Source: an uncultured Planctomycetia bacterium
Lineage (GTDB): Bacteria; Planctomycetota; UBA8108; UBA1146
Reading direction: 5' to 3'
DNA length: 64,000 nucleotides
Assembly: GCA_964412635.1 (NCBI GenBank)
Contig: CAYPPQ010000001.1
Location: 46,382-110,381, forward strand
The notes under the pieces: generated by a model
Seen by the model: only the letters and a program-made list of their open reading frames with translations
Told to the model about the DNA's origin: nothing
Database searches by the model: none
Position numbers and translations under genes: made by a program
Part shown: positions 5,506 through 22,087 of the stretch, piece by piece
Layout of the letters: every line of letters begins with the position of its first letter
Numbering within the stretch: the stretch's first letter is position 1

Positions 5506-8500
5506 TCAACGCTCCCTCAGTGTGACCTGAATCTCCACTGTCGCCTCTTCTCGTTCGATCACCAGCACGACAGTGTCACCAGCTTCCAGTTCCTTCAGCA
5601 GGTTCGAGTATCCCCTCAGGTCCTCGACGACGGAGCCAGCGAGAGAAATCAGCCTGTCGCCAGCCATCAGTCCGGCCAGTTGTGCCGGAGAGTCGTCCAC
5701 CACTCCCTCGATCCTGACTCCGGGACCCGTGTCTGCGAAATCAGGAATGGTTCCGAGGAACACCCTGCGCCCTGTAACGGGAGGGGTAGATCTGCCGCCG
5801 TTTCCATCTGCTGCGGTCAACGTCGAGGTCAGAGGATCGACTCGATCCGACAGGTACAGCAGAGCCTCTCGCAACCATGTTGCGACCTGCACCATCCCCT
5901 CTGCATCGACCTTGTCTGCCGTATCACCCGGACGGTGATAGTCATCGTGTGGACCCGTGGTCAGCTGGATTCCCGGTACCCCGAGCTCGTGAAAAGGAAC
6001 CTGATCGGACCCACCTGGATCATCCTTGACCGCCGTCGATGCGACACCGGTGGTGAAACCGATCCCACGGGCGATGTGAATCCACTCGGTGGCGGTTCCG
6101 GTTCCCAGTGCCAGCAGCCTCCCCTGCGAGAGGCGCCCGACCGCATCGATACTGATCACCGAGATGGCATCCCTGGCAGGCCACTGTTTCATCGATTCGA
6201 CGTAGCGGCGAGCCCCACGTAACCCCCACTCCTCGGCACTGGTGGCAACGAAGATGACGGTCCGTGCTGGACCATGGGTTGCCACCATCAGCCTGGCGGT
6301 CTCCAGCATCACTGCCACACCGGAGGCGTTGTCGTCTGCTCCCGGGTGAATCTTGCCTTCATTTCCCGCCCTGACATCGGGCCAACCGCGACCGAGGTGA
6401 TCGACGTGAGCAAGGACCACGACAGATTGACCCGACAGAGCAGGATCGTTGCCAGGAATGACTCCGATGACATTTCGAAGCCCCACACCCTTCTTGGTCC
6501 GATCGTCGAGTTCATCCTCGCTCCAGGAATCGAAGAAACTTCCTTCCGGCGCACCCGGCTGCAGACCGATCTCGGAAAACCGATCCGCCACCCACCGGGT
6601 CGATTGATGGAGACCTTCTGAACCATTCCCCCGTCCCTCCCGTTGAGGATCGGCGAGCCAACGGACATCGGAAATCATCCGATTGGCATCGAGTACGGGA
6701 CCCGGTCGCGCCAGAGGCTCTCGCGCATCTTCCGGCGCAGTAATCGTGATCCCCGCTGCCGTCCAGGAGAGGGGGGAGGTTTCAGTTCCCCATTCACCCT
6801 TGGCCACGTTGGTCGGTTCATCCCCTTCAAATAACAGATAGGAGTACTTTCCATAGTGCGGCAGTTTTCGCGCCAGACCGGGAATCGCTTCCTCCTTGTA
6901 ACAACGGATCAAACCCACCGTGAGATCTTCGTCAGCGGGATGCCGTGCCACCTGGATCCCCGAATGATTCCACTGGCCAAGGCCCGGCTTTTCATGCGGC
7001 GGTTTCATCGTCGGAAGTATCCATCGGGAATCAGTCAGAGTGAATCTCCCCTGACTCCCCTTGTTGAGGACCGCCTTCCGCAACCTCTCACTCGCCACAC
7101 CCATCGTCGTCTCGCCGAGGATCCACACCGCCCGATCGGGCGGGATCTGTTCCAGTTCGGTGTCGAGGACGATGCGAACATCTCCATCGGCGGCCCACGT
7201 TTCGGCCAGCGCTCGCCACGCCTCGAGCCTCGGACTCATCGAGGGCAGGATGATCAGCTGTGATGAAGCACCGAAGATGTCGCCAATCGTCGGCGGAGTC
7301 TCAGAACGATCGAGTCGTCGAAACACATCGAAGAAGGGGTCGACTCTCACCGCAGCCACGGAAGCGGGAACCTCGAGAGACCTGTGACGGGGAACCGTGT
7401 CCTCGGCGATCGCAAAGGTGAGTGTCTCTTGCTGCCACTTCGATTCACCAGCGATCTGGTAGTAAACCGGTAAGTGAATCGGGAATGGATCGTGCTCCTG
7501 CACCTGTGAAACCTGGATCGTCGACAGTTCATCCGAGGCTTCCACCTCGAGCAAGATCTCCGGAGCTCCAGTTCTGCCAACCCAGGCGTTCATCCACCCT
7601 CTCAGATCGGTCTTTGCACTCTTCCCCAGCGTCACCGCAAGATCATCGAAAGATGCGTTCCTGTACCGGAAGGACGAGTAGAACTCGCGGAGACCGTTCC
7701 GGAACACCTCGTCGCCAAATTGACGACGAATCATGTGCCAGATCATCAAGCACTTGCCATATCCCACCGCCTCGGTGGCTCCTGAATGACGGCTGCGAAA
7801 CTCACTGAGTGGAAAGTCGAGGCCATCCTGTACATAGGAGCCAAACTTCTTCAGAACATCACGTCGATACTCCGCCCCCCGACCGTCTCCTTCTTTCATC
7901 AGATGATCGGCGAGATAAGCGGTCAATCCTTCGCACCAGTTGCCCGAAGCGTAATCGACGTACACCGAATTCCCCCACCAGTTATGCAGTACCTCGTGGG
8001 GATACGACGACCTGAGGATGAAAGGAAGACGGATCACCTGCGGTCCGAGCAGGGTGAAGGATGGCATCCCATAGCCGCTCTCCCAGAAGTTCTCCACCAG
8101 TGCAAACTTCTTGTAGGGATAGGGACCGATCAGCCGATCGTACATCTCCACGTACTGAATCGTCGCTTCCAGATACTTCTGGGCCAGGTTCGAATCAGGT
8201 TCTCGCAAGAAGACCTGAACCTCCACCAGCGGAGTACTGTTCTTGTACTCATGAAATCTCGCGGCGATCAGAAACACTTCCTCTTGTAGATGCTCGCCGA
8301 CACACTCCCAGCGGACCCGGGATCGCTCGCTGTCGACATCGGTCTCGACCCGACTTCCCTGACTGACCGCAACCCAGCCCTCCGGAAGGTCGACTTCAAG
8401 GGTAAAGGTGAACTTCACACCATCGGGGATGGGGAGCCATGATGTCGCCCCCCCCAGGAACACTCCTGCCTCCTCGATGGTTCCCGGTGTCGATGAGAAG

Positions 8501-8892
8501 GAACGCCCAGCTCCGGAACCGACCTGCCCCAGTGCTTCCCGGATGATCCCCGTTGCCGAGATCACCACCCGTTGATTGACCGCCCCATCCTCGGGAAGGG
8601 TTACCCGCCAACGCCTCCTGTCGACGGGCCGCTGGGGGTCAAGGCTGGCGCCACTTCCCTGCTCCAGATCCTCGATGAGGGTGAGCGATCCCGGCGATTC
8701 CAGTTGCGGGGTGAGGGCAGAATGCAGCGGGAATTCGTACTGGCGACCGAACATCTCGCTTGAGACCTGCCAGTGGATCACCCCTGTCGAGGGCTGTAGA
8801 GACACCTGGGCGTCAACATGGGGGTTCCAGCCAGGCACCTCCGGGGAAGGAAGGCAGCACAGCAGGGTGTTCAGTAACAAGGACAAGTACAT
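5506..8892 (-). CDS. secreted multidomain metallopeptidase: M1-like (HEXXH...E gluzincin) domain + M28 aminopeptidase domain + C-terminal PDZ
   Basis: The M1-like motif is HEVLHNWWG...WCEGLTAYL. The M28 set is HVDHLGRG, HPGADDNASGVAVMLE, SAEEWGLRG, ISIDAVG and DDYHRPGD. The PDZ is GVRIEGVVDDSPAQLAGLMAGDRLISL. The ORF track starts at 8925, but the ATG at 8892 (MYLSLLLNTLLCCLPSP signal peptide) has a GGAAAGG RBS 6 nt upstream, so I prefer it. Confidence 0.8.
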   Translation of the reverse strand: MYLSLLLNTLLCCLPSPEVPGWNPHVDAQVSLQPSTGVIHWQVSSEMFGRQYEFPLHSALTPQLESPGSLTLIEDLEQGSGASLDPQRPVDRRRWRVTLPEDGAVNQRVVISATGIIREALGQVGSGAGRSFSSTPGTIEEAGVFLGGATSWLPIPDGVKFTFTLEVDLPEGWVAVSQGSRVETDVDSERSRVRWECVGEHLQEEVFLIAARFHEYKNSTPLVEVQVFLREPDSNLAQKYLEATIQYVEMYDRLIGPYPYKKFALVENFWESGYGMPSFTLLGPQVIRLPFILRSSYPHEVLHNWWGNSVYVDYASGNWCEGLTAYLADHLMKEGDGRGAEYRRDVLKKFGSYVQDGLDFPLSEFRSRHSGATEAVGYGKCLMIWHMIRRQFGDEVFRNGLREFYSSFRYRNASFDDLAVTLGKSAKTDLRGWMNAWVGRTGAPEILLEVEASDELSTIQVSQVQEHDPFPIHLPVYYQIAGESKWQQETLTFAIAEDTVPRHRSLEVPASVAAVRVDPFFDVFRRLDRSETPPTIGDIFGASSQLIILPSMSPRLEAWRALAETWAADGDVRIVLDTELEQIPPDRAVWILGETTMGVASERLRKAVLNKGSQGRFTLTDSRWILPTMKPPHEKPGLGQWNHSGIQVARHPADEDLTVGLIRCYKEEAIPGLARKLPHYGKYSYLLFEGDEPTNVAKGEWGTETSPLSWTAAGITITAPEDAREPLARPGPVLDANRMISDVRWLADPQREGRGNGSEGLHQSTRWVADRFSEIGLQPGAPEGSFFDSWSEDELDDRTKKGVGLRNVIGVIPGNDPALSGQSVVVLAHVDHLGRGWPDVRAGNEGKIHPGADDNASGVAVMLETARLMVATHGPARTVIFVATSAEEWGLRGARRYVESMKQWPARDAISVISIDAVGRLSQGRLLALGTGTATEWIHIARGIGFTTGVASTAVKDDPGGSDQVPFHELGVPGIQLTTGPHDDYHRPGDTADKVDAEGMVQVATWLREALLYLSDRVDPLTSTLTAADGNGGRSTPPVTGRRVFLGTIPDFADTGPGVRIEGVVDDSPAQLAGLMAGDRLISLAGSVVEDLRGYSNLLKELEAGDTVVLVIEREEATVEIQVTLRER

Positions 8893-9027
8893 CCACAGCC
8901 TTTCCCGATTCCTGGCGTGGATCATACCTGCTGAACCACATCCGGTCCATGTTGACTCGGCCCTCAGAAAGCCTTCTCATCCTGTTCGTGGCAGCGGGGA
9001 TACTCTGCCACAGACGGAGAGTTCCAG

Positions 9028-11433
9028 ATGACCAAGATCGACCAGCTGTTTCTGACTACTGCACGCAAATTGGGCCTCATCGATGACGATGGCCTCAAGC
9101 AGATTGCCACCATCGTCGAAGATGGCACGGGAGATGCTGCAGATACCGCTGTTGAACTGGGTCTGATTTCAGCGGAGCAATCCAGCAAGTTGATCTACAA
9201 CATCGAGACCAAGGTACCCCCGCAAAACATTCCTGGCTTCGAGGTGATTTCTCACATCGGTAGGGGTGCCACCAGCACCGTGTGGAAAGCGCGACAGGAA
9301 TCCCTCGGGAAGACGGTCGCTCTGAAAGTGTTTTCCACCTCGGTCACCAAGAAAACAAAACCTGATCAGTTGATCTCCGAAGCACGAAACGCTGCTCGTC
9401 TCAATCATCCCCACATCGTGCATGCCATCGATGCGGGGATCTCTGACGGTTGCTGCTGGTTTGCGATGGAGCTGGTTGAAGGTGAAACACTCCATCAGAA
9501 ACTGAAGCGCAGAGGAGTCCTATCGGAGAGAGAGCTGGGAGAATTCGCCCTGTGCGTCACCCAGGGATTGGCCCACGCTCACTCCGCAGGCCTTCTGCAC
9601 CGGGATCTCAAACCTGGCAACATCCTCATCTCCGAAGATGGCGTTCCCAAGATCACCGATCTGGGCCTGGCTCTCGCTGAAGAAGAGGCGGGTGATCTCG
9701 ATTCCGGAGAACGCCGCAAGGGAACTCCTCACTACATCTCGCCCGAGCAGATCCGTGGAGACAACATCGATGCGAGGAGTGATCTGTACTCCCTCGGCGC
9801 CACTCTTTATCACTGTGCGACCGGACGCCCACCCTTCCAGGGCAAGAGCACCAAGGAGATCCTGAAAAAACACCTCCATGAAGAACTGATTCCCGTCGAT
9901 ACCCTGGCCAACAGGTCGTCACCGATTCATGAGATCATCGAGAAGTTACTGTCAAAAACTCCTTCCGATCGATTCTCCAGTGCAGAAGAGGTCATCGAGG
10001 CACTCAACAACGCCAGTGTCGATAAAGCGCATGAATCCGTCAGTGCTCCCCGAAGCAAGAGACGGGTGTCTTCCACCGTTGCTGGCAAGACTCCCGTTCG
10101 AAGGGTTGTCTCCGGAGTTTCTCGTGGTTCGTTGCAGAGCAAGAACACCCTGATCTCGAAGATCGGAGTCGGTGTAGGGATTGCGATCTCGATGATGATG
10201 GTCGTCTCGGCCGCTTCCAAGGCGAATCAGGAAGCTCCCGGTTTCAGTGAACAGATCGCCAGTCACCGCGATGAGATCTATCAAAAGAAGATCAAGTTGC
10301 GTATGGACGCCACAGTCGTCGACCATGAGCGAGAAGAAGCCAATGCTGAGACAATGCTCAAATCGATCCTGTCACAGGATCAAGATATCCAGGTCAGAGC
10401 ATTGCAGCAGGCACTGAAATCCCACTGTGCAACCAGGGCCTCCGCTGACATGAGCGATGCTCTGGACCGGATCCGGGGTGACATCGTTCGCTCCAGACAG
10501 GAGGACGGTCGTACGGTGCTGGCGGAGGCGACCGCTCTCGCCAACGAGGGGAAATTGTGGCCAGCGGTCAAACTTCTTGACGACAGACCCAGTTCTGCCC
10601 GCAAGGATCAAGATCTCAACAATGACATCGAAAAACTACTCGCCAACTGGGAAGCGGAAATCGACTCGAGATTTGCAGTGGATTTCCAGAAGATCGGTTT
10701 CCACCGCGACCGTCGGGAGTTTTCAGAGGCTCTCGCCTTGATCGATGAAATCGAAGGCTATGCCGACCCCGATAACGCAGAGGACGCCACCAAGATGCGG
10801 GACGTCATCATCCAGACCCGGGAAAGGTTGGCAATCGAGGAGTCGAAGCGTCGATTGACCGAAGAAAGCAGCAAGTATCGTGAGCTGTGGGCGAACTACC
10901 AGGAGAAAGCGCTCGCACGCGACATCAAGGGAATGATCAGTCTCGCTGTATCTCTCGATGCAGAACTGGTAGTGAAGGAAGTGAAGGACCGACTTGAATC
11001 GGACCTTCTCGCCTTCAGTCTCCTCGATGGCTTCATCAAGGAGGCAATTCAGGAGCTGGTCGAGAAGGGTGAGAGCGGCAAGGAGGTCGCACTCGAACGA
11101 ATCCCGCTCGGCTCCAGCACCAAGAACAGGATCGATCGCGGCGTCGTCGATCGTGTCGATAGCCAGAATGTCTGGATCAAGCTTTCATCGGAAAACGCCA
11201 TCCTGCCGATGAAAATCATTGATATCACCGACGCTTTCCTCTTTCAGCAGGTTGCAGATCGACATGGCAAGAGCAGTGTCGAGTACCGGATCCCACTCGG
11301 ACTCCTGAGCATGTACCGGGGGCTTTTCGATGTTGCAGCGGAGAACTACCGGATCGCCGAGGAGAAAGGGCCCCGTCCCGACACCTGGATCGAGAAGCTC
11401 GAGTGGGTCAAGAAGAACGCCCGGATGCGCTGA
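9028..11433 (+). CDS. Ser/Thr protein kinase with N-terminal GSPII_E_N/MshEN-like domain, one TM helix and a large C-terminal extracytoplasmic domain
   Basis: Kinase subdomains are present: GRGATSTVWKA, ALKVF, HRDLKPGNIL, DLGLA and SPEQ. The N-terminal 60 aa (ARKLGLIDDDGL...VELGLISAEQ) resemble the T2SS-E N-domain. The TM helix is GVGVGIAISMMMVVSAA. Confidence 0.9.
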   Translation: MTKIDQLFLTTARKLGLIDDDGLKQIATIVEDGTGDAADTAVELGLISAEQSSKLIYNIETKVPPQNIPGFEVISHIGRGATSTVWKARQESLGKTVALKVFSTSVTKKTKPDQLISEARNAARLNHPHIVHAIDAGISDGCCWFAMELVEGETLHQKLKRRGVLSERELGEFALCVTQGLAHAHSAGLLHRDLKPGNILISEDGVPKITDLGLALAEEEAGDLDSGERRKGTPHYISPEQIRGDNIDARSDLYSLGATLYHCATGRPPFQGKSTKEILKKHLHEELIPVDTLANRSSPIHEIIEKLLSKTPSDRFSSAEEVIEALNNASVDKAHESVSAPRSKRRVSSTVAGKTPVRRVVSGVSRGSLQSKNTLISKIGVGVGIAISMMMVVSAASKANQEAPGFSEQIASHRDEIYQKKIKLRMDATVVDHEREEANAETMLKSILSQDQDIQVRALQQALKSHCATRASADMSDALDRIRGDIVRSRQEDGRTVLAEATALANEGKLWPAVKLLDDRPSSARKDQDLNNDIEKLLANWEAEIDSRFAVDFQKIGFHRDRREFSEALALIDEIEGYADPDNAEDATKMRDVIIQTRERLAIEESKRRLTEESSKYRELWANYQEKALARDIKGMISLAVSLDAELVVKEVKDRLESDLLAFSLLDGFIKEAIQELVEKGESGKEVALERIPLGSSTKNRIDRGVVDRVDSQNVWIKLSSENAILPMKIIDITDAFLFQQVADRHGKSSVEYRIPLGLLSMYRGLFDVAAENYRIAEEKGPRPDTWIEKLEWVKKNARMR

Positions 11434-11444: not shown

Positions 11445-12047
11445 TCATCGCTCCATTGCTGCTGATATTCTTTTCCAGTCATGCGGATCATCGACATCCT
11501 CCAGAACCAGCGGATTCTCCGTCACGATGTACTCGACCTTGATCTCGGGTGCGGTCAGCAGCGCTCTCAGATGTGGCGGCCCCTCCGCTTCTTTCAGACG
11601 GACGATGCTCTGCCGCCGCACCACAACAGGATGCCCTCTCCGTTGACCATGGGAAATGATCCACGCATCCACCCGGCTATCCGCATCACTGCTGGCTGCA
11701 TCGATGATGGAAGTCACATCTTTCACACCGATGCCAACGACATCGACTGGATGAATCAACACCGCATCCCAGTCGCCAGGTTCACTGATTCCCGTTCGAA
11801 TGCTGGTCACTGGACCTTCAAGAGGGTTTTCATTGATGACGACGTTGGCACCGGACTTCTTCGCCTCATCGTTCACCACCTCCCGGTGCGACCCTCCACA
11901 AACGACGAGTACTTCCTCGCAACCGCCTTCTCGAAGGCAATCGACCAGTCTCTGTAATATTGATTTTCCGTGCAACTGGAGAAGAGCCTTCGGAGAACCG
12001 AAGCGACTCGATTCACCCGCAGCGATGATGATTCCGCGAATCTTCAT
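11445..12047 (-). CDS. MobA/MocA-like nucleotidyltransferase (NTP_transf_3, molybdenum-cofactor nucleotidyltransferase family)
   Basis: The N-terminal IIAAGESSRFGSPKAL motif matches the MobA/MocA LAGGxSxRMG...K signature. At 200 aa it is the right size. Its ATG at 12047 overlaps the TGA of the upstream helicase gene (ATGA). Confidence 0.65.
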   Translation of the reverse strand: MKIRGIIIAAGESSRFGSPKALLQLHGKSILQRLVDCLREGGCEEVLVVCGGSHREVVNDEAKKSGANVVINENPLEGPVTSIRTGISEPGDWDAVLIHPVDVVGIGVKDVTSIIDAASSDADSRVDAWIISHGQRRGHPVVVRRQSIVRLKEAEGPPHLRALLTAPEIKVEYIVTENPLVLEDVDDPHDWKRISAAMER

Positions 12048-14608
12048 CGGATCTTTTCATCGAGCTGAGAGGCGACGAAAAACGCATCCATGGCGGTTCT
12101 GATTTCTTCCCAGGACCCCTGCACTCGACGGCAGTCTGGCAAGCTGCTGAGGAATCTTTTGCCATACGGTTTGTTGACGATCCGAGCATCACCGATCACG
12201 ACGACACCCCGGTCTTCGAGGGTCCTGATCAATCGACCGAAGCCTTGACGCAAACCCAGTATCGCTCTCGGTAGTGCCAGGTGTGCAAAAGGGCTCTTGC
12301 CCCTCGCTTCCAGATCCTCCGCCCTCCCCTGCTCGAGGGGATGGTGTGGAATCCTGAATGGCAGCCTGGCGATGACCACGCAGGAGAGAGCCGCCCCAGG
12401 AACATCGATGCCCTCCCAGTACGATTGATTGCCAAAGAGCACTGCTCGACCTGAATCGACAAATCTTCTCAGCAATTCAGTTCTGGGAAGGTCGCCCTGA
12501 GCCAGCAGCGGCATCCCCATCGCCTGCAGCGCTGGTCTCACCTTTTCTGCTGTACGCTTCAGTGCTTGATGTGAGGTGAAGAGGACGAAAGTTCTCCCGC
12601 TGGCAGATCTCGCAGCATCTTGAATCACCTCGGCGATTCGCTGGTCGTAGCCAGAACGACCCGGCTCCGGGATATCTTCCGGTAGCCCCAGCAGCACCTG
12701 TTTCTGCCAGTCGAAGGGTGAACTGAAGTCCTCCCTTCGCAACCGCTCTCTTTCGACATGGTCCCAACCAAGACGATCGCTGAGGAAATTCCAGGACTCC
12801 CCCACCCGCAGCGTTGCACTGGTCTGGATCACCGTGCCCACAGGACCGTACAGATGTTCAGAAAGAAGTTCATCGACTCGTAGTGGAGCTGCACGGACAA
12901 GCACCTGTTTCTGCGGTTTCGAGGCCATCTCGATCCACGGCTGAATACCTCCGCCAGCACCGAGCACGAAATCGATGGCCGAAATCTGCTCTGAAACTGA
13001 TCGAAGTGCAGATCGAAGTTCGACAGCTGCAACCTGGTATTCCATCTCCGGCTCGAACGGATCATCCTCGAGTGCTTCCATGCATCTCTTCAGAACTCCC
13101 AGCAAATCATCGAGCCCCTCCCTGGCATCGGAGAGGGGCGGGGCCACCACCGTCAACGGCAACATCCCCTCGCGATCGCCAATTCTCGCCATGAATGATC
13201 CTTCTTGACCATTCGATTCACCGACCAGGTGAGCAGAATCGAGAACCCGCACCTCCAGTCGCTGGAGAGCAGCCTCGACCACCTTCCTGACCGTCACGAC
13301 ACGCCCCAGGACATCCATCGAGAGAAGTTCGTGGGCGCGGCCCTGGTGATGCCTGGACAGATGCTGACGTAGCCACGGAAGTCGGCCACTCTCTCTCGAT
13401 CCCCGCTTCCCCTTCGGCGATACCAGTCGGCCAAGGACCTGGAGCAAACCGCGGCGAGATACCTCTGACCCGAGATGGTGGCAGGCGACCTCTTCCAGAT
13501 GATGCCCTTCATCGAAGATGACCTTCTGGTAGCCGGGAATCACCAGATCGCTATCGAAGTCTCCTGTCGACCTCCTCAATTTCAGATCAGCGAAGAGAAG
13601 ATGATGATTGACCACCACGATATGTGCGCCGAAGGATCGTCGCCTCGCTTCGTAGTAGTAGCACTCCCGGTAATGGGGACATCGAGCCTTCAGTGACTGA
13701 TCGGAGGTGGATTGAAAGTCAGACCAGATTTCGTCGGGAACTTCTCCGGGCATCTCCTGACGGGTTCCATGTTTCGCCTCTCCCAGTCGATCGATGACAT
13801 CTGCGTACCAGCTCGCCTTTTCATCATCCTCGGAGAAGATCTCTGGCTCCATCGACACCTGCTTCAGCTTTCTTCGACAGGCGTAATTTCCCCGCCCTTG
13901 AATCAAGGCGAAGCGGAAGTCGACCCCCAGAACTCTTTGCAGTGCCGGAAGATCGCGGTGAACCAGTTGCTCCCCCAGTGGAATCGTGGCAGTGGAGATC
14001 ACCACTCGCCCTCGATTCCTCACCGCCCACAAGATCGAAGGAACCAGATAGGCGTATGACTTACCGACTCCGGTACCCGCTTCCAGCGCGGCGATGTCTC
14101 CCTGGTTCAGTGCTGCTGCCACTGATCGCGCCATCGCCATCTGCCCGGGCCGTTCCTGGTAGTCTGGAAATGCACCGGAAAACACTCCCCCATCGCGGAA
14201 GATCTCGTCGATCTCCTGGGGATCGACGGCAACCTCCTGGCGCTCGGGAAACGGCTCGACAACCCTGTTTATCCGGGTCGCATCGTTATTGATGATGAAG
14301 AATCCGAGGCGACGGGCTCCCGCTTCCGAGGCGATGGACATGTCCGCCGGACTGGGCGTCAGATCTCCTCCAGGATGATTGTGGATGAGAACTTCGTAGT
14401 TTTCATCGACGGCACGGGAGAGAAAAACAGGGACCTCGGAGGAGCGCCCCCGAGCAATCGCCTCGACCTCGTGGAGCTGTGACTCCCGGTCAAGGCGGCC
14501 CAGAAAGAAGACCTCGTTGCTTCCTGCTTCAGCGATGGTACTGGCCAGGAAATCCTGAACTCCTGGGGCCAGTAACTGATCGCTTTCAATTCCCTCGGTA
14601 CGACCCAA
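12044..14608 (-). CDS. RadC-like JAB/MPN domain fused to DinG-family Fe-S ATP-dependent DNA helicase
   Basis: The N-terminus has the JAMM motif HNHPGGDLTPSPAD (HxHx7Sx2D, resembling RadC HNHPSG). The helicase motif I is EAGTGVGKSYA. The 4-Cys Fe-S insert is NYACRR...ARCPHYRECYYY. The DEGH box is FDEGHHLEE, and the C-terminal helicase motif is QSYWEGIDVPG. The start is a TTG at 14608 with a GGAGAGG RBS 9-10 nt upstream. Confidence 0.8.
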   Translation of the reverse strand: MGRTEGIESDQLLAPGVQDFLASTIAEAGSNEVFFLGRLDRESQLHEVEAIARGRSSEVPVFLSRAVDENYEVLIHNHPGGDLTPSPADMSIASEAGARRLGFFIINNDATRINRVVEPFPERQEVAVDPQEIDEIFRDGGVFSGAFPDYQERPGQMAMARSVAAALNQGDIAALEAGTGVGKSYAYLVPSILWAVRNRGRVVISTATIPLGEQLVHRDLPALQRVLGVDFRFALIQGRGNYACRRKLKQVSMEPEIFSEDDEKASWYADVIDRLGEAKHGTRQEMPGEVPDEIWSDFQSTSDQSLKARCPHYRECYYYEARRRSFGAHIVVVNHHLLFADLKLRRSTGDFDSDLVIPGYQKVIFDEGHHLEEVACHHLGSEVSRRGLLQVLGRLVSPKGKRGSRESGRLPWLRQHLSRHHQGRAHELLSMDVLGRVVTVRKVVEAALQRLEVRVLDSAHLVGESNGQEGSFMARIGDREGMLPLTVVAPPLSDAREGLDDLLGVLKRCMEALEDDPFEPEMEYQVAAVELRSALRSVSEQISAIDFVLGAGGGIQPWIEMASKPQKQVLVRAAPLRVDELLSEHLYGPVGTVIQTSATLRVGESWNFLSDRLGWDHVERERLRREDFSSPFDWQKQVLLGLPEDIPEPGRSGYDQRIAEVIQDAARSASGRTFVLFTSHQALKRTAEKVRPALQAMGMPLLAQGDLPRTELLRRFVDSGRAVLFGNQSYWEGIDVPGAALSCVVIARLPFRIPHHPLEQGRAEDLEARGKSPFAHLALPRAILGLRQGFGRLIRTLEDRGVVVIGDARIVNKPYGKRFLSSLPDCRRVQGSWEEIRTAMDAFFVASQLDEKIR

Positions 14609-14692
14609 TATCTCGATCCTCTCCGGAACAGATACCGATCATCGCCGACAGCGGTGGCCGAGCAAGCGAGCACTCGTTTCTCCCCAAGAAAA

Positions 14693-14730
14693 AACTCCCT
14701 GCCAGGAACCGATGTTCCTGGCAGGGAGTT
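14693..14730 (-). terminator. rho-independent terminator for the dockerin-protein gene
   Basis: A perfect 17-bp stem, aactccctgccaggaac / gttcctggcagggagtt, with loop cgat. On the minus-strand transcript it is followed by UUUUUUCUUGG. It separates the 14763..16523 gene from the helicase operon. Confidence 0.7.
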
Positions 14731-14762: not shown

Positions 14763-16523
14763 TCAGCAGCCCGAGGTCGGGCTCAAGCAGTCGAGTGGAT
14801 CGGTATCGGTCGGATCAAGTCCACAAGCATCACCTGGTGCTGGAGGTGCCGCTCCGCCGGAGAAGAGGAAACCAAGCAGGTAAACCGCATCTCCGATGTT
14901 CATCGATCCATCGTCATTGGTGTCCGCAGAGTCATCACAAGAAGGTGCCACTCCTCCGGAGAAGAGGAAACCGAGCAGACTCACGGCGTCACCGATATTG
15001 ATGGATCCGTCAGAGTTGACGTCACCACGACGGAACTGGATTCCACCGACATTGCAGGAAGGATCCGCGAAGCAATCGGGATCATCGCAATCTGCCAGGG
15101 AATCTCCATCGTCGTCGATTCCGTTGGTGCAGTCCTCAACAGGTCCAGTGGTCGGTGGCATTCCGCTGTGGTAGAGCCTGCAGCTGATTCCCCCGAACTC
15201 GAACTGAGCACTGTAACTCTCGTTGATTCCATCGTTGTCAGCATCGACGTCCGGATTGATTCCGAAGGTGCCGAGCAGATCGACGAGATTCCCTGCGAAG
15301 GGTGGTGGTGCCGGCTGAGTGAGCAAGAACGCCTGGGTCAGGAATGCATCTGTCGGTGTACTCTGGAACTCGTACACACCGGACAAGGTTCCCGGATAAA
15401 AATCGGCTTCCACGGTCAGATTGTTGAGTGGGATACCCGAAACGTAAATCGTTCCCGGACCCGCAATCAGGTGTCCCGCCTCGAGGGTTCCACCCGGGAA
15501 GCTTGAAATCGGATCTCCCGTGACCTGGTCGTAGTCGAGAGAATCGATGACGAACTCGTTAAAGCCATCCCCGTTGTTGGTCGTATCTCCATCCAGATCG
15601 AAACCACCGAATGCGTTCAGGGTGATGTTGTCATCATCCGAGTAGGTGGGATCATCCAGATCTGCAACTTCGAGCAGGAACGGGAAGTTCTCGAGATTAC
15701 TGGCGAGCAATGCATTGAGTCCATCGGTGATCGTCGGATTGGATCCCAGAATTCCACCGGTCACCACCTGCGAGGTCGCAACAAATCCATCGACATCAGG
15801 ATGGTACGAGTAGAACAGGTCGCAGGAAATTCCACCGAACTCGAATACTGCCGTGTAGCTTTCGTTCACTCCATCCCCATCCGCATCGTGATCGGGAAAG
15901 ATGCCGAAAGAATCGAGGGTATCGACCAGGGTGCCGGCAAAGGGCGGAGGCGCTGGCTGTGTGGCCAGGAATGCCTGGGTCAGGAATGCGTCGGTCGGCG
16001 TGCTCTGGAACTCGTAGACTCCAGTCAAGGTACCCGGGGTGAAGTCCGCCTCCACGGTCAGGCCGTTGAGGGGAATCCCCCCGACGATGATCGTTCCTGG
16101 CCCTGCGGTCAGGTGACCGTCGACGATATCCCCGTCAGGAAAGCTGGAGATCGGCTCCCCGGTGGTGGAATCGAGGCTGTAGGGGTCGATGACGAACTGG
16201 TTGGCTCCCGAGCCATTATTGGTCGGATCGCCGTCGATATCGTATCCCCCGAAGGTGTTCAGGGTGATGTTGTCGTCGTTGGTGTAGGTCGGGTCGTCGA
16301 GACCTTCTACTTCCAGCAGAAATGGAGAAGTCAGAAGGCGCTCGGCAAGCAGTGCATTCAGTCCCTCTGTGATCGTTGGATTTGATCCAAGGATGCCACC
16401 TACCACTACCTCTGAGGTGGCCACGAATCCTTGCTTGGAAAACTGGGCATTGGCGTCACTGCTCGGAAGGAGCAGCAGAAAAAGAAACACAGGTGTAAAA
16501 GTGCGAACAAAAAGGCGATTCAT
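14763..16523 (-). CDS. secreted protein with two 214-aa tandem repeat modules and a C-terminal Cys-rich linker plus double dockerin-like repeat
   Basis: There is a signal peptide, MNRLFVRTFTPVFLFLLLLPSSDANA. Two repeats begin GFVATS(E/Q)VV..GGILGSNPTIT and end EFGGISC. The C-terminus has two copies of GDVNSDGSINIGDAVSLLGFLFSGG, which is dockerin type I-like calcium-binding sequence. Confidence 0.7.
   Translation of the reverse strand: MNRLFVRTFTPVFLFLLLLPSSDANAQFSKQGFVATSEVVVGGILGSNPTITEGLNALLAERLLTSPFLLEVEGLDDPTYTNDDNITLNTFGGYDIDGDPTNNGSGANQFVIDPYSLDSTTGEPISSFPDGDIVDGHLTAGPGTIIVGGIPLNGLTVEADFTPGTLTGVYEFQSTPTDAFLTQAFLATQPAPPPFAGTLVDTLDSFGIFPDHDADGDGVNESYTAVFEFGGISCDLFYSYHPDVDGFVATSQVVTGGILGSNPTITDGLNALLASNLENFPFLLEVADLDDPTYSDDDNITLNAFGGFDLDGDTTNNGDGFNEFVIDSLDYDQVTGDPISSFPGGTLEAGHLIAGPGTIYVSGIPLNNLTVEADFYPGTLSGVYEFQSTPTDAFLTQAFLLTQPAPPPFAGNLVDLLGTFGINPDVDADNDGINESYSAQFEFGGISCRLYHSGMPPTTGPVEDCTNGIDDDGDSLADCDDPDCFADPSCNVGGIQFRRGDVNSDGSINIGDAVSLLGFLFSGGVAPSCDDSADTNDDGSMNIGDAVYLLGFLFSGGAAPPAPGDACGLDPTDTDPLDCLSPTSGC
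15159..16430 (-). repeat. direct tandem duplication, 2 x 642 bp, inside the dockerin-protein gene
   Basis: Protein repeat 1 (aa 32-245) and repeat 2 (aa 246-455) are about 75% identical. Long DNA stretches are conserved, for example ctgggtcaggaatgc(a/g)tc(t/g)gtcgg(t/c)gt(a/g)ctctggaactcgta at about 15341 and about 15971. Confidence 0.8.
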
Positions 16524-16703: not shown

Positions 16704-16970
16704 CTAACTGTCTTGGCGCAATCCCTCCGCCAGGACGGACACGTGATTCTCGAGCACCTCGAGGAAGCCTCCGGAAACCGTCCAGTTTTCCTCGGTTCCG
16801 CCAGCGGTGCGGATCCTGAGAGGACCCTCCCCCAGTGCGGTGATGAGAGGTGCATGGCCCGGAAGGATGCCCAGTCGCCCGTCGAGGGCATGGGCCTCCA
16901 CGAAGGAAGCTTCACCATCGAAGATCGATCCATCTGGAGAGAGGACGCAGCAGTGCAAGGTGCCGGCCAT
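16704..16970 (-). CDS. atpC: ATP synthase epsilon subunit, short form (beta-sandwich only)
   Basis: The 88 aa protein (LHCCVLSPDGSIFDGEASFVEAHALDGRLGILPGHAPLITALGEGPLRIRTAGG) is the epsilon N-domain. The C-terminal helical hairpin is absent. Confidence 0.85.
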   Translation of the reverse strand: MAGTLHCCVLSPDGSIFDGEASFVEAHALDGRLGILPGHAPLITALGEGPLRIRTAGGTEENWTVSGGFLEVLENHVSVLAEGLRQDS

Positions 16971-16974
16971 GTGC

Positions 16975-18432
<1,458 letters not shown>

Positions 18433-18472
18433 TTATCCGACGGCATCTGCTCGCCGGAATATCCAGTTTGAA

Positions 18473-19354
18473 TCAGTTCAAGACCTCGGCGCCACCGATC
18501 ACTTCCAGGATCTCCTGGGTGATCGCTCCCTGACGCGTACGGTTGTAGAGCTGAGTGTATTTCGTCGCCATCTCCTCGGCATTGTCGGTCGCATTCTTCA
18601 TCGCAATCCGGCGAGCAATCTGCTCGCTGGCTGCGGCTTCCACCAATGCCTGGAAAAATTGCATTTTCAATGAGAGCGGCAAGAGCCGCCCAAGAATCAG
18701 TTCGGGGCTCGGCTCGAGGATGAACTCGCCACCGCCACTCTTCGTGTCGCTATCAGCGGTTTCGTCGACGGAGATGGGTAACAATTTGCGCAATACAGGC
18801 TCCTGACGAGCTGCATTGATGTAGTGCGTGAACACCACCGATACCCCATCGATCTCGCCCTGTTCAAAACTCGCCATCACCGGCTCGATAACCGCTTCCG
18901 CCTCCTCGAAGGTGGGACGGTCCTCGAATTGAGTCATCGTCTCGGCGGTCTCCCGTCCAAGGTAATTGAAACGGGTGATCCCCTTCTTGCCGAGCATGTA
19001 GACATCGACGGCAGTTCCATTTTTCGCCTGCTCGTCTATGTACACCTCAGCCATCTTCAGGGCATTGGTGTTGTAACCACCGCAAAGACCGCGATTGGCC
19101 GTGACGATGAACAACGCAACCTTGGCCGGTTTCTCGACCTCCCTGAGAAGGGGAAAACTACCGGAAAGCCCATCCCCACAACCACCGAGATCGCGCAGGA
19201 TTTCTGCGAGCTTGTCCCCGTATGGTTGCGTAGCTTCGATCCTCTTCTGACAGACCACGGCCTTGGCGGTGGAGATCATCTCCATCGTCCGCGTGATCTT
19301 CTTGGTGTTATTCACCGATCGGATCTTATTTTTTAGCTCTCTCGAGGTAGCCAC
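18473..19354 (-). CDS. atpG: ATP synthase gamma subunit
   Basis: It starts MATSRELKNKIRSVNNTKKITRTMEMISTAKA and ends ITQEILEVIGGAEVLN, and is 293 aa. Confidence 0.9.
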   Translation of the reverse strand: MATSRELKNKIRSVNNTKKITRTMEMISTAKAVVCQKRIEATQPYGDKLAEILRDLGGCGDGLSGSFPLLREVEKPAKVALFIVTANRGLCGGYNTNALKMAEVYIDEQAKNGTAVDVYMLGKKGITRFNYLGRETAETMTQFEDRPTFEEAEAVIEPVMASFEQGEIDGVSVVFTHYINAARQEPVLRKLLPISVDETADSDTKSGGGEFILEPSPELILGRLLPLSLKMQFFQALVEAAASEQIARRIAMKNATDNAEEMATKYTQLYNRTRQGAITQEILEVIGGAEVLN

Positions 19355-19371
19355 TGTATCTCCTCGCCTCG

Positions 19372-20895
19372 CTAGCCTTGCGGCAGTTTGGCACTGAAGT
19401 CCTTGTTGAAGTCAGAAACGACCCTGGTGAGATTCGCCTCTTCCTCTTCGTTCATCTCTCCAGACTTGGTGATTCCATCGATAATCTCGGGGAACTCGGT
19501 CCGGAGGTGATTGAGCAACTTCTCTTCAAAATCAGCCAGGGAATTGACCGGAAGGTTGTCGAGATGTCCGTTGGCACCACACCAGATCACCACCACCTGT
19601 TCGGCGATGGGCATCGGCTTGTACTGCGGCTGCTTGAGGATCTCTACCATGCGGAATCCACGGTCAAGCTGGGCCTGCGTCGCCTTGTCGAGATCGGTTC
19701 CCAACTGTGCGAAGGCTTCCAGTTCCCTGAATGCGGAGAGGTCGAGACGCAGCGATCCTGCGATCTTCTTCATCGCCTTGATCTGTGCGTTTCCTCCCAC
19801 CCTCGAGACTGAAATTCCGACGTTCACCGCAGGTCTCTGACCGGCGAAGAAGAGGTTGGGTTCGAGGTAGATCTGACCATCGGTGATCGAGATCACGTTG
19901 GTCGGGATGTACGCCGACACCTCACCCTCCTGCGTCTCGATCACTGGCAGGGCGGTCATCGAACCTCCTCCGAGATCATCGGAGAGCTTCGCTGAACGTT
20001 CCAGCAGGCGAGAGTGCAGGTAGAAGACGTCTCCCGGGTATGCCTCACGCCCTGGAGGACGGCGCAGCAGCAGCGACAGCTGCCGGTATGCGGCGGCCTG
20101 CTTCGACAGGTCATCGTAAACACACAGCGTATGCCCGCCGTTGTACATGAAGTACTCGGCCATGGCAGCACCGGTGTAAGGGGCGATGTACTGCAACGGA
20201 GCAGGACTGGAAGCGGGAGCACTGACCACGATGGTGTAATCCATCGCACCCTCGCGCTCGAGCCGGTCCACCACTCCTGCGATCGTCGACCCCTTCTGCC
20301 CCACCGCCACGTAGACGCAGATCACGCCACTGTCACGCTGGTTGATGATGGTGTCGATGGCGATTGCAGTCTTTCCGATTCCCCGGTCGCCGATGATCAG
20401 CTCTCGCTGACCTCGACCGATGGGAATCGTCGAGTCGATCGCCTTGATCCCGGTCTGGAGTGGCTCGTGAACCGATTTACGATCCGCGATTCCAGGTGCC
20501 GGAGATTCCATCGCACGGTAGTGCTCCGTCTTGATGGGGCCCTTGCCGTCGAGGGGATTGCCAAGCGGGTCGACGACCCGTCCGAGCAGCGCCTCACCGC
20601 AGGGAACCTGCATGACGGTTCCGGTTCTCTTGACTTCATCACCCTCCTTGAGGGTGGCAAACTCACCGAGAATTACGGCTCCGATGGAGTTCTCTTCGAG
20701 GTTGAACGCGAGACCGTTTGCGCCATTCGAGAACTCCAACATCTCCCCTGCCATGCAGTTAGAGATGCCATAGATCCTGGCGATTCCGTCTCCCACCTCG
20801 AGAATGGTACCGACCTCATCTACTGCGAGGTCTGACTGGTAATTTTCGATCTCCTTCTTGAGGACAGAGGAGATCTCATCTGCATTAATTTTCAT
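19372..20895 (-). CDS. atpA: ATP synthase alpha subunit
   Basis: It has the P-loop [18 protein letters not shown] and is 507 aa. Confidence 0.95.
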
Positions 20896-21469
20896 CGATC
20901 AGGTCTTTCCCGAATCGAGTAAGTGACACTTCTTGACGGACCTTCCGCAATTGGGTGCGAAGGCTACCGTCGACAACCAAATCACCGATCTGGATCGTGA
21001 TTCCAGACAGGAGGCCTTCGTCGACCAGTTCGGTCGAGACCACCTCCTTGTTCAACTTCTTCGTTATCGCTGCAGTCAGAGCATCGCGCACGTCTTTCGG
21101 CAATTGTGCCGCAGACGTGATTGTTGCGTTGATCCGACCAGCAGCCTCATCGCTCTGATCCCGATACGCATTCGTGATGTCATCGATCAGGTCCTGGCGA
21201 CTGCGATCGATGAGGATGCGAACCAGGTTGAGGACCGGCTCTGCGACCTTGCCCTCCAGTGCCTTTTCAAGCACTGCCTTCTTGTCTTCGCGACGAATCT
21301 TGGGACTCTCGAGGAACACCTTGAAGTCAGCATCTGCCTCGACGGCGTTCAGGAGCGCTGTCAGCTGCTCGCCGTAAAGGTCCACCGAATCGTTGGCGGT
21401 ACCAACCTCCATCAGGGCACGGGCGTAAGCCTGGGCCACCGGATGTCGTTGTTTGATGCCTGCTGCCAT
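20885..21469 (-). CDS. atpH: ATP synthase delta (OSCP) subunit
   Basis: The 194 aa OSCP-like helical protein sits between atpF and atpA and overlaps atpA by 11 nt. Confidence 0.85.
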
Positions 21470-21478
21470 GCCTGACTC

Positions 21479-22087
21479 CTAGCTGATCTTCTCGTACTCG
21501 GAGATTGTCTCCCGGGCGATTCGATCGTGATCCTCACTGGTTACCGAATGGCCGATCAACTTCTCGGAGATGGACAGGGAGAGATCGATTGCACGGGTAT
21601 GGATCTCGTCGACTGCTTTCTCCTTGGCCTGATCGATGTCGGAAAGGGCTCTCGCCTTGATCTCCTCCGCCTGCGTTCGAGCTTCGGAAACGACCTGGTC
21701 GCGAACGACCTCGGCATCCCTCTTGCCCTCGGCGACGATGGAACTGGCTTCCTTGCGCGCATTTGCGAGCACCTTTTCCTGTTCCGCCTGAAAAGCCTGC
21801 TGCTCTGCTCTCATTCGATCCGCAGCCTCAAGAGACTCACGGATCTTGTCATCACGCTCGTCGAGAGCAGTGGAGATCGGTCCCCACGCCTTCTTCTTCA
21901 GGACCAGGAACGCCAACACGAACACCGTCACCGTGTAGATGAAGGTCTCCGTATCCGGATCGAGCAGCCCCTTCTTTGCACCACCTGCAGCATCCTCAGC
22001 GAGCAGCTGCGTGGTCGTGACGAAGAAGAAACCAACCAGAACCGAAAGGAACCGGATCAGTCTCGAGATGCCTCTTCGGTTACCCAC
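21479..22087 (-). CDS. atpF: ATP synthase Fo subunit b
   Basis: It has one N-terminal TM helix followed by a long charged coiled-coil (AEQQAFQAEQEKVLANARKEA...). Confidence 0.85.
   Translation of the reverse strand: MGNRRGISRLIRFLSVLVGFFFVTTTQLLAEDAAGGAKKGLLDPDTETFIYTVTVFVLAFLVLKKKAWGPISTALDERDDKIRESLEAADRMRAEQQAFQAEQEKVLANARKEASSIVAEGKRDAEVVRDQVVSEARTQAEEIKARALSDIDQAKEKAVDEIHTRAIDLSLSISEKLIGHSVTSEDHDRIARETISEYEKIS

Follow-up and report, generated by a model that had tools for sequence, protein, structure and literature searches.

The window analysed here, a stretch of 64,000 nucleotides from an uncultured Planctomycetia bacterium, carries a gene for an 854-aa protein in which an N-terminal RadC-type JAB/MPN domain is joined to a DinG/YoaA-type helicase, followed on the same strand by a gene for a MobA/MocA-like NTP transferase (Table 1). 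Upstream, the unit is insulated from a gene for a 586-aa dockerin-domain protein by an intrinsic terminator that lies 32 nt past the stop of this gene and whose hairpin is maintained through compensatory changes in the orthologous loci. The Shine-Dalgarno sequence GGAGAGGA is found 8 nt 5' of the helicase TTG; both elements are conserved in the orthologous loci L002, L003, L010, L011 and L013, and a TTG or GTG start is kept among the syntenic orthologs. In the otherwise divergent intergenic alignment, G..GAT forms the sole invariant columns, and CTTGC recurs upstream of it. Since a scan for the sigma-70 consensus gave no match, we can only infer that this footprint marks a promoter. The first-pass annotation had considered control through a LexA/SOS box, and the intergenic alignment of orthologous loci contains no conserved LexA box upstream of the helicase. 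Its picture of a self-contained two-gene unit opening on a TTG with a good ribosome-binding site is, on the contrary, sustained by the conserved start, the upstream terminator, the promoter-like footprint, the ATGA overlap between both genes and the convergent gene downstream.

Table 1. Features of the JAB-DinG/NTP transferase locus (positions within the window)
Feature	Position	Strand	Details
Ser/Thr kinase gene	9028..11433	+	convergent; ends 11 nt from the NTP transferase stop
MobA/MocA-like NTP transferase gene (NTP_transf_3)	11445..12047	-	200 aa; PF12804, 115.5 bits
ATGA stop/start overlap, helicase/NTP transferase	12044..12047	-	...ATC CGA TGA / ATG AAG..., read from sequence
RadC-like DinG gene	12044..14608	-	854 aa, TTG start; N-terminal JAB/MPN plus DinG/YoaA-type SF2 Fe-S helicase
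Helicase_C_2 (motor domain 2)	12134..12619	-	aa 664-825; PF13307, 136.6 bits
DEGH box (Walker B/motif II)	13502..13513	-	aa 366-369; D366 and E367 invariant, H369 at least 90% conserved
Fe-S cluster domain, C244...S305-x4-C310-x5-C316	13661..13879	-	Cys ligands C244, C310 and C316; Ser at ligand 2
Walker A GTGVGKS	14057..14077	-	aa 178-184 (EAGTGVGKS, aa 176-184); G178, T179, G180, G182 and K183 invariant
RadC-type JAB/MPN domain	14255..14593	-	aa ~6-118; PF04002, AF2, Foldseek
JAMM zinc motif H76-N-H78-x7-S86-x2-D89	14342..14383	-	HNHPGGDLTPSPAD, aa 76-89; conservation in homologs
Glu32, predicted JAMM general base	14513..14515	-	invariant in 62 homologs (36-79% identity)
Shine-Dalgarno and TTG start	14606..14624	-	GGAGAGGA (14617-14624); TTG (14606-14608)
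Promoter-like conserved footprint	14638..14666	-	CTTGCT, ~16-19 nt, GATGAT; inferred from intergenic alignment
Intrinsic terminator of the upstream 586-aa dockerin-domain gene	14693..14730	-	17-bp stem (10 G-C pairs), 4-nt loop, T-tract TTTTTCTT

Members of the DinG/YoaA family are Fe-S helicases that move in the 5'->3' direction. The core of the 854-aa protein is an SF2 helicase of the XPD/DinG/YoaA type, with motor domains, Arch domain and Fe-S domain. A Pfam profile search recovered RadC, DEAD, DEAD_2 and Helicase_C_2, upholding the RadC-plus-DinG assignment made on first reading, and the top-scoring NCBIfam models are those of YoaA/DinG, all of them below their equivalog cut-offs. The full-length AF2 model (pLDDT 90.9, pTM 0.86) has E. 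coli DinG as its best PDB fold match in Foldseek (6FWR; E 1.7e-41, TMt 0.73), with S. aureus exo-DinG as the second-best solved structural relative of the helicase core. Residue conservation was established over 62 homologs sharing 36-79% identity. Eight of the nine features listed in the first-pass annotation were present where it had placed them and one was wrong; the insertion that it described as a 4-Cys Fe-S domain contains only C244, C310 and C316, which are invariant, with Ser at position 305. At this position, the canonical second ligand, Ser is found in 34 of the 62 homologs, Cys in 27 and Thr in one, and all Planctomycetota-type homologs carry Ser or, rarely, Thr. Assuming that a cluster is bound, the putative Fe-S cluster of the Planctomycetota clade would thus be ligated by three Cys plus Ser305.

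At the N-terminus, PF04002 matches residues 17-94 with 30.8 bits (gathering cut-off 22.1), a match that spans only positions 7-89 of the 121 in the profile. The domain is modelled by AF2 with a pLDDT of 90.8 and retrieves RadC (2QLC, E 3.7e-6) as its top Foldseek match, followed by the JAMM peptidases PfJAMM1, Rpn11, CSN5 and AMSH, with modest TM-scores (0.44-0.56) to all solved JABs. Within the zinc motif, H76, N77, P79, P85, S86 and D89 are invariant in the 62 homologs and H78 is at least 90% conserved. Of 120 homologs, with identities as low as 37%, 116 retain the motif, at a fixed distance of ~102 aa from Walker A; such conservation and spacing lie far beyond chance. The N-domain is conserved like the helicase (33-70% versus 36-79% identity). 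The fused domain is a compact JAB with a complete and strictly conserved predicted JAMM zinc-hydrolase site (E32, H76, H78, S86 and D89), and the catalytic residues proposed from the single sequence hold in the homologs. A single-sequence search with the N-domain returns essentially DinG fusions only, indicating that it constitutes a JAB subfamily of its own; at least 514 representative clusters (50% identity) match it, almost all at helicase N-termini. It is important to remark that the fusion itself is not new. RadC-JAB/DinG fusions were described in 2011 by Iyer et al. in planctomycetes, deltaproteobacteria, spirochaetes and others, together with the inference that the JAB replaces the exonuclease of exo-DinG (PMC3239186), an idea repeated in 2017 (PMC5512222), and a DinG review of 2025 named the subgroup 'RadC-like DinG' (PMC11981726). 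The novelty implied by the first-pass annotation consequently falls, as the fusion is widespread and also occurs outside this lineage (members are found in Planctomycetota, Desulfuromonadota, Spirochaetota and Dadabacteria), and the 854-aa protein is a chromosomal, housekeeping member of this already-described subgroup. The positional argument does stand: the exo-DinG model PRK08074 aligns through its positions 247-927 to residues 139-842, which puts the JAB domain where exo-DinG has its first ~246 positions, those of the exonuclease.

The surroundings of the gene bear on whether it could serve in defence against phages or mobile elements, as a CasDinG-like or other DinG-based immunity helicase with the NTP transferase as signalling or modifying partner, a function at which the first-pass annotation had hinted. 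PADLOC typeIV_DinG (CasDinG) models do match the protein, with a best score of 385 bits, and conjugative elements and prophages often carry RadC domains (PMC5512222). The PADLOC matches, however, are confined to the generic helicase core (aa 146-831), Csf4, a curated model, reaches 94.6 against a cut-off of 400, and PADLOC gives no match for the NTP transferase. Neither cas genes, a CRISPR array, an integrase nor other defence genes were found near the locus, which is a conserved housekeeping block adjoining the ATP synthase operon; the helicase has MetH, a peptidase, a kinase and ATP synthase as neighbours, and the order atpD-atpC-586aa-helicase-NTase-kinase is syntenic in 13 related genomes. 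Moreover, the composition of the locus does not deviate and the gene is present throughout the sampled lineage rather than patchily. Defence is, in consequence, a highly improbable role that the genomic context effectively refutes.

The second gene of the unit shows a different distribution from that of the helicase. The NTP transferase follows the helicase on the same strand in all 23 Planctomycetota-type loci, over helicase identities that go from 98% to 39% and while the flanking genes vary. Stop/start overlaps join both genes in most of these loci, with overlapping or abutting junctions also in L001, L004-6, L020, L022 and L026. Planctomycetota transcribe the helicase gene together with that of the MocA-like enzyme, as a rule with translational coupling. 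Both genes are co-conserved, but within Planctomycetota only: the NTP transferase is absent at ~30 other JAB-DinG loci (Desulfuromonadota, Spirochaetota and Dadabacteria) and at ~50 plain DinG loci, which makes the pair a lineage-specific operon. That the JAB-DinG gene of Planctomycetota always precedes a MocA-like nucleotidyltransferase gene represents a modest new lead; no mention of the downstream gene was found in PMC3239186, PMC5512222 or PMC11981726. Such linkage could reflect a functional module rather than a historical accident, in which both enzymes share a substrate or pathway. One of them might, for example, make a nucleotidylated DNA end, protein or small molecule that the other removes, or the MocA-like enzyme might make a dinucleotide cofactor needed by the helicase. 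Besides the linkage and the overlaps, this would fit with the conservation of the AGxSxRxGxxK, PxD and RGHP motifs in 11 divergent NTP transferase orthologs and with an independent archaeal JAB-nucleotidyltransferase operon noted by Iyer et al. (PMC3239186). Nevertheless, its absence from the other JAB-DinG and plain DinG loci implies that the helicase does not generally need the NTP transferase, the association had a single evolutionary origin, and L025 and L027 have 93 and ~380 nt, respectively, between the two genes. Compared over the same pairs of genomes, the NTP transferase diverges much faster (46-59% identity) than the helicase (71-80%). The retention nearby of an AhpC-type redoxin and of the ATP synthase operon, whose function is clearly unrelated, indicates general synteny inertia in the region. 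A functional module is thus rather improbable, and the persistence of the linkage may be historical. The flanks examined contain no genes of the Moco pathway.

As a whole, the locus is probably best explained as a housekeeping RadC-like DinG, whose helicase would bring a zinc hydrolase to blocks, set in a lineage-specific Planctomycetota operon. The putative role of the protein is most likely that of a repair or replication helicase delivering the JAMM zinc hydrolase to blocked ssDNA. Loading onto the ssDNA of gaps or stalled forks, the helicase would move in the 5'->3' direction, and the tethered hydrolase would be brought to whatever blocks the helicase and then process the block. For the chemistry we tentatively favour the hydrolysis of adducts of the amide or peptide type, for instance crosslinks of DNA to proteins or peptides, or else of proteins that are tightly bound, because the domain keeps all catalytic residues of the JAMM peptidases, the oxyanion Ser among them; the choice between peptidase and nuclease draws on active-site analogy only. 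To our knowledge, activity has not been demonstrated for any RadC-type JAB domain, and phosphodiester cleavage is not known from any JAB/MPN domain. This last point weighs against the possibility that the RadC-JAB is a metal-dependent nuclease or nucleic acid-processing enzyme that displaced the DnaQ 3'-5' exonuclease, so that the protein would unwind and degrade DNA like exo-DinG or AddAB-type enzymes. The positional equivalence in the PRK08074 alignment and the fold match of the core to S. aureus exo-DinG speak for it, and so do an argument from non-homologous displacement of domains and the RadC fusions with HhH, ArdC-N and primase domains (PMC3239186, PMC5512222) as well as the placement of JAB within the deaminase-like fold, whose members act mostly on nucleotides (PMC3239186). 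The site is, however, a mono-zinc E/HxH/S/D JAMM identical to that of isopeptidases, and the nuclease, an alternative already in the literature, seems unlikely. The peptidase scheme has its own difficulties, as Iyer et al. argued that RadC-type JABs lack the groove holding the ubiquitin tail (PMC5512222), which weakens a classical isopeptidase reading. In addition, radC mutants of E. coli and S. pneumoniae had no repair defect according to Attaiech 2008, as cited in PMC11981726. The delivery of a hydrolase by a helicase would be analogous to the eukaryotic FANCJ helicase with the SPRTN protease, where SPRTN comes after FANCJ has unfolded the DNA-protein crosslink (Yaneva 2023, as cited in PMC10175854).

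Comparison with known systems places each part of the locus. E. coli DinG and YoaA (6FWR) share core fold and motifs with the protein (phmmer E 1.8e-52) but are devoid of an N-terminal JAB domain, and the models NF008729 and NF053712 stay below their equivalog cut-offs (402.8 versus 598 and 544.7 versus 680); the YoaA partner HolC is reported to be absent from organisms with RadC-like DinG (PMC11981726). Firmicutes exo-DinG (S. aureus DinG, 8ZEF/9II8) has a DinG core and a catalytic domain in the same N-terminal position, but this domain is a 3'-5' exonuclease of DnaQ/RNase H fold instead of JAB/MPN, and PRK08074 and TIGR01407 likewise score below cut-off (448.7 versus 789 and 326.9 versus 547.7). 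The JAB fold and the E...HxHx7SxxD zinc site are common to RadC (PF04002, 2QLC) and the JAMM/MPN+ isopeptidases (PfJAMM1 5LDA, Rpn11, CSN5 and AMSH), RadC being the best match of the N-domain in both sequence and fold. Canonical RadC, however, has only ~220 aa, carries an HhH domain at its N-terminus and lacks a helicase, and its full-length models (TIGR00608, PRK00024) remain far below cut-off (27.2 versus 180). The NTP transferase shares the NTP_transf_3 fold and the ~200-aa length of MocA/MobA (1E5K, 2WE9), and its N-terminal nucleotide-binding motif AAGxSxR(F/M)GxxK resembles that of MocA, although it falls below the equivalog cut-offs of MocA TIGR03310 (111.7 versus 186) and MobA TIGR02665 (37.4 versus 152). 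The closest counterpart is RadC-like DinG, modelled in Desulfuromonas soudanensis A0A0M4DKS9, with the same N-terminal RadC-type JAB and conserved E/H/H/D, the same YoaA/DinG-like core with Fe-S, Arch, MD1 and MD2, and the same ~850-aa length class; the named Desulfuromonas and Geobacteraceae members have helicases 37-40% identical to the 854-aa protein, and planctomycetes were explicitly listed in 2011 (PMC3239186). Two differences set the Planctomycetota clade apart: its second Fe-S ligand is Ser, rarely Thr, whereas the two examples tabulated in the review are '4C' (PMC11981726), and, unlike at the ~30 other JAB-DinG loci, its helicase gene is followed by that of a MocA-like NTP transferase.

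The 854-aa protein encoded on the minus strand of the window is a DinG/YoaA-type Fe-S helicase, and where exo-DinG has its nuclease it carries a tethered JAMM zinc site that is strictly conserved. The first-pass annotation had described its gene as starting on a TTG codon and as translationally coupled, through an ATGA overlap, to a gene for a 200-aa nucleotidyltransferase (NTase), and both the ORF listing and the sequence demonstrate that this arrangement is real. The good ribosome-binding site assigned to the TTG corresponds to a Shine-Dalgarno sequence, GGAGAGGA, placed 8 nt before the start, and both this element and the non-ATG start recur in orthologous loci. As had also been stated, the pair lies between a strong upstream terminator, which belongs to a gene for a 586-aa dockerin-domain protein, and a convergent downstream gene, in this case a Ser/Thr kinase gene that ends 11 nt from the NTase stop. 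Altogether, the original observation is confirmed with one correction, which concerns the number of cysteines in the Fe-S motif, and the interpretation built on it is partly supported.

Coordinates in the window of the gene pair, its boundaries and other features mentioned in the text
Feature	Position	Strand	Details	Source
Helicase gene	12044..14608	-	854 aa, TTG start	ORF listing
NTase gene	11445..12047	-	200 aa	ORF listing
Helicase/NTase overlap	12044-12047	-	four-base ATGA	sequence
Terminator of the upstream dockerin-domain gene	14730..14693	-	17-bp stem followed by a T-tract	
Ser305 codon of the helicase	13694-13696			
Dockerin-domain gene	14763-16523	-	586 aa	
F-type ATP synthase operon	16704-23300	-		
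Peptidase_M1 + Peptidase_M28 + PDZ gene	5506-8925	-	1139 aa	

The identification of the N-terminus as a RadC-type JAB/MPN domain withstood the profile searches, since RadC (PF04002) matches aa 17-94 with 30.8 bits against a gathering score of 22.1, alongside the DEAD_2 and Helicase_C_2 matches found further along the protein. The JAMM motif HNHPGGDLTPSPAD (aa 76-89) and a Glu at aa 32 compose the E...HxHx7SxxD signature that, on an MPN fold, characterizes JAMM/MPN+ metallopeptidases, and the N-domain presents both the signature and the fold; the putative metal-site residues E32, H76, H78 and D89 are all present together with S86. The expectation that the catalytic His, Ser and Asp would be conserved in orthologs was borne out in an alignment of 62 homologs with 36-79% identity, where E32, H76, N77, P79, P85, S86 and D89 are invariant, H78 is conserved in at least 90% of the sequences, and conservation of the N-domain equals that of the helicase. 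The AlphaFold2 model of aa 1-140 (pLDDT 90.8) finds RadC 2QLC as its best fold match (E 3.7e-6), followed by PfJAMM1, Rpn11, CSN5 and AMSH (E 7e-5 to 1e-3), with bacterial Bub/Bil deubiquitinases also appearing below RadC. The TM-scores of these matches are moderate (0.44-0.56), and this is therefore a divergent JAB. Confirmation of the RadC assignment needed the fold search because the RadC match was marginal in a sequence-only search of the PDB (E 0.0036). Canonical RadC consists of an HhH motif plus a JAB domain, whereas the N-domain matches the JAB core only; consequently, the full-length RadC equivalog models, which include the N-terminal HhH, score far below their cut-offs (PRK00024, 27.2 against 180; TIGR00608, 20.5 against 133.85). 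In one Desulfuromonadota-type homolog, P0094, HNQ replaces HNH in the JAMM motif and the second zinc His is lost, which echoes the inactive RadC-DinG versions that Iyer et al. reported in fusobacteria.

The question of whether the JAB-DinG architecture is restricted to this lineage was answered in the negative, as it is found in several other phyla. A database search with the helicase recovered 7182 homologs at E<=1e-10, and the top 120 of them, almost all of 830-900 aa and often labelled merely 'DinG', belong to Planctomycetota, Geobacteraceae and Desulfuromonas; further members, from Spirochaetota, Treponema and Dadabacteria, emerged from scans of genomes and metagenomes. The HxHx7SxxD motif keeps a constant spacing of ~102 aa to the following Walker A in 116 of these 120 homologs, the distance in the window's helicase being 102 aa. 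When the N-domain was searched against 1.84 billion cluster representatives, 514 clusters matched at E<=1e-3 (283 at E<=1e-10). Among the best 150 of the 514, a Walker A motif stands at ~+102 in 96, most of the other long proteins are of ~850 aa with variant motifs, and the short matches look like contig-end fragments, mostly too short to be told from stand-alone proteins; no convincing independent architecture of this JAB subfamily was found in that set. Because the matches carry Walker A or reach ~850 aa and the short ones are fragment-like, the subfamily appears to be essentially confined to DinG fusions. As judged from the aligned sequences, there is clear evidence for strong purifying selection on the JAMM site across at least four phyla, and it is for this reason that the JAB domain of these proteins is almost certainly catalytic.

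The complete DinG/XPD-type core that had been recognized, with Walker A, DEGH box and Helicase_C_2 tail, is present. Pfam places DEAD on aa 163-245, DEAD_2 on aa 305-386 and Helicase_C_2 on aa 664-825 (136.6 bits), and the EAGTGVGKS Walker A and the DEGH box are both found. The full-length AlphaFold2 model (pLDDT 90.9, pTM 0.86) has E. coli DinG 6FWR as its best solved relative (Foldseek E 1.7e-41), with S. aureus exo-DinG, CasDinG and XPD as further ones. YoaA is the top NCBIfam match (544.7 bits against a cut-off of 680) and the DinG models score 402.8-448.7 (PRK11747, 402.8 against 598), every score being below the curated cut-off for a DinG or YoaA equivalog. The correction concerns the Fe-S insertion: instead of four cysteines it contains C244, C310 and C316 only, with Ser305 at the canonical position of the second ligand. 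The motif C244, S305, C310, C316 thus differs from the four-cysteine motif tabulated for RadC-like DinG examples, which is not strictly defining, three-cysteine variants being accepted as Fe-S domains (PMC11981726). Across the 62-sequence alignment, ligand 2 is Ser (once Thr) in all 34-35 Planctomycetota-type sequences and Cys in the remaining 27, Desulfuromonadota-type included, most of which have an extra Cys at position 300. A His near ligand 2 (His312) is common (47/62) and could serve as a substitute ligand.

To our knowledge, few bacterial domains that lack a demonstrated activity are as widespread as RadC-type JABs, and we know of no activity established for any of them; contextual clues to what they do are few, and the DinG fusion, published in 2011, is one of these. 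The proposal that the JAB domain takes the exact place of the exonuclease in exo-DinG holds, because positions 247-927 of the exo-DinG model PRK08074 align to helicase residues 139-842 and the model aligns only from position 247 onward; no RNase_T or DnaQ Pfam match was detected in the helicase, which is not a member of the exo-DinG family. It is established for the DinG family (see PMC11981726) that the helicases move 5'->3' along ssDNA and work at stalled forks, gaps and R-loops. The helicase would carry the Zn-hydrolase to the obstacle that it meets, where the hydrolase might, as a tentative reading, hydrolyse a protein or peptide adduct. Phosphodiester cleavage by a JAB domain seated where exo-DinG has its nuclease is rather unlikely. 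Adduct hydrolysis is favoured by analogy, because the whole peptidase catalytic set, oxyanion Ser included, is invariant and the fold neighbours are peptidases. No Ubl, E1 or E2 genes were found near the locus, and RadC-type JABs probably lack a groove for a Ubl tail (Iyer et al., PMC5512222). Cooperation between an XPD-family helicase and a metalloprotease on DNA-protein crosslinks is described for FANCJ and SPRTN (Yaneva 2023, as related in PMC10175854). If the peptidase reading is right, these proteins would be a bacterial counterpart, in a single chain, of this FANCJ-SPRTN pairing in DNA-protein crosslink repair. The literature search found no link between RadC and DNA-protein crosslinks and nothing beyond computational papers on the activity of RadC or RadC-like DinG; radC mutants show no repair phenotypes (PMC11981726).

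Regarding the second gene of the pair, its MobA/MocA-like family is supported by a match of 115.5 bits to NTP_transf_3 (PF12804, cut-off 27) over aa 5-165, which makes it a member of this family. It belongs to neither the MocA nor the MobA equivalog (TIGR03310, 111.7 against 186.45; TIGR02665, 37.4 against 151.85), and no Moco genes flank the pair in the window or in the loci L020-L027. Among solved structures, a Sulfolobus protein and MobA/MocA-related proteins of M. tuberculosis are its closest relatives, and the AGxSxRxGxxK, PxD and RGHP motifs are kept in 11 divergent orthologs. Two ~30%-identical NTP_transf_3 genes (P0295 and P0301) lie in unrelated contexts, with neither a helicase nor Moco genes, and thus say little about the function of the NTase; the word-indexed search reached few distant relatives.

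The co-conservation of the two genes stands for one clade and fails beyond it. The block atpD-atpC-586aa-helicase-NTase-kinase is syntenic in the 13 closest genomes, which alone says little about linkage. In every divergent Planctomycetota-type locus sampled (helicase identity 57% in P0015, 47% in P0036, 42% in P0054, 41% in P0051, 40% in P0082 and 39% in P0078), the NTase is downstream on the same strand and the other neighbours differ; in P0078 an AhpC-type redoxin gene separates the two. An HMM of NTase orthologs run over 110 loci detected the gene in 23/23 Planctomycetota-type JAB-DinG loci, in 0 of ~30 other JAB-DinG loci and in 0 of ~50 plain DinG loci. The linkage has a single origin and is a deep trait, specific to this clade; the clade with the downstream NTase is also the one in which Fe-S ligand 2 is Ser or, once, Thr. 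The linkage hints at co-function without proving it. Upstream of the pair, the window and the very divergent loci L023 and L026 also keep the ATP synthase operon, whose function is unrelated, and the NTase diverges much faster than the helicase. It is very improbable that the RadC-like DinG and the MocA-like NTase form a true two-enzyme pathway in Planctomycetota. On that reading, the product of the transferase would be a nucleotidylated DNA end, protein or small molecule, or else a dinucleotide cofactor; the JAMM hydrolase tethered to the helicase would remove this product or make use of it, and the Cys-to-Ser change would belong to the same clade-specific adaptation. Such a pathway, if true, would give the first biochemical handle on the role of a RadC-type JAB.

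Other genes recur around the pair. The F-type ATP synthase operon just upstream of the helicase gene reappears in L023 (1-4526) and L026 (1-4735), separated from the helicase by a single unrelated gene (for a dockerin-domain protein or MTHFR), and in the Desulfuromonadota-like L024 (26-1696) atpI/atpB/atpE are found ~4 kb upstream; synteny inertia is the probable explanation, odd as the recurrence across phyla is. An AhpC/TSA-type redoxin gene lies 0-3 kb from the pair in L023 (8610-9155), L025 (11409-11966), L026 (10303-10776) and L027 (7575-8114), often with a B3_4-domain gene in divergent Planctomycetota; the redoxin gene of L023 sits between helicase and NTase, with overlapping stops and starts. 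The 586-aa protein has a signal-peptide-like N-terminus, an internal tandem duplication of ~225 aa, in which the motif FVATS.VV.GGILGSNPTIT.GLNALLA... occurs twice, and, at the C-terminus, a dockerin type I domain (24.8 bits); it is conserved at 65-97% identity in 13/13 syntenic genomes. Beyond the kinase gene lies a Peptidase_M1, Peptidase_M28 and PDZ fusion, and locus L020 (57% identity) has a protein of this architecture in the corresponding place (12254-14607).

The hint of a defence-like function for the pair did not survive. PADLOC matches only the generic helicase core, the neighbours are housekeeping genes (MetH, peptidase, kinase, dockerin-domain protein and ATP synthase) and base composition does not deviate at the locus, so neither a defence nor a mobile origin is supported. 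The combination that defines CasDinG and type IV systems was likewise not found at the locus: with TIGR03117, the Csf4 model, the score is 94.6 (cut-off 400), and adjacent csf genes with a CRISPR array do not accompany the helicase. Elsewhere in the window (30000-48000), GC rises from ~0.57 to 0.60-0.64 over a long run of minus-strand ORFs, which may be a large conserved operon, not foreign DNA.

At the regulation level, no conserved LexA-type operator was found upstream of the helicase in 12 syntenic loci with the Gram-positive Cheo box, a motif that may not be the host's. The sole candidate for the suspected SOS box, GAAC-ATCG-GTTC at the apex of the terminator hairpin, fits the GAAC-N4-GTTC consensus, is shared by the window and the near-identical L001 alone, and is absent in L002-L013. 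The hairpin is retained through compensatory changes, and since orthologous hairpins carry different apex sequences, the match is taken here as chance. Between the terminator and the helicase start, conservation is limited to a weak footprint, CTTGC, ~17 nt, GATGAT, which might be a promoter; its status stays inferential because a sigma-70 scan of the region gave 0 sites.

The JAB-DinG fusion is already known, and nothing in the window amounts to a new kind of system. The novelty implied by the first-pass annotation was anticipated by Iyer et al. in 2011 (PMC3239186), where both its observation and its inference were published; the point was restated by Iyer et al. in 2017 (PMC5512222), and a 2025 review named a 'RadC-like DinG' subgroup and modelled its Desulfuromonas soudanensis member with AlphaFold3 (PMC11981726). 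Neither the Planctomycetota NTase operon nor the Cys-to-Ser ligand switch, in which the residual interest lies, was found in these three papers, and either feature could help in choosing proteins for biochemical work. With respect to known systems, exo-DinG has an N-terminal DnaQ-like 3'-5' exonuclease, whereas the window's helicase has a JAB domain at that position, and JAB-fused helicases are close to the versions fused to a 3'-5' exonuclease (PMC3239186). The protein fits the RadC-like DinG subgroup in its N-terminal RadC-type JAB directly before the helicase core, in its putative metal site made of a Glu (beta1), two His and an Asp (alpha2), and in its YoaA/DinG-like core with MD1, Fe-S, Arch and MD2.
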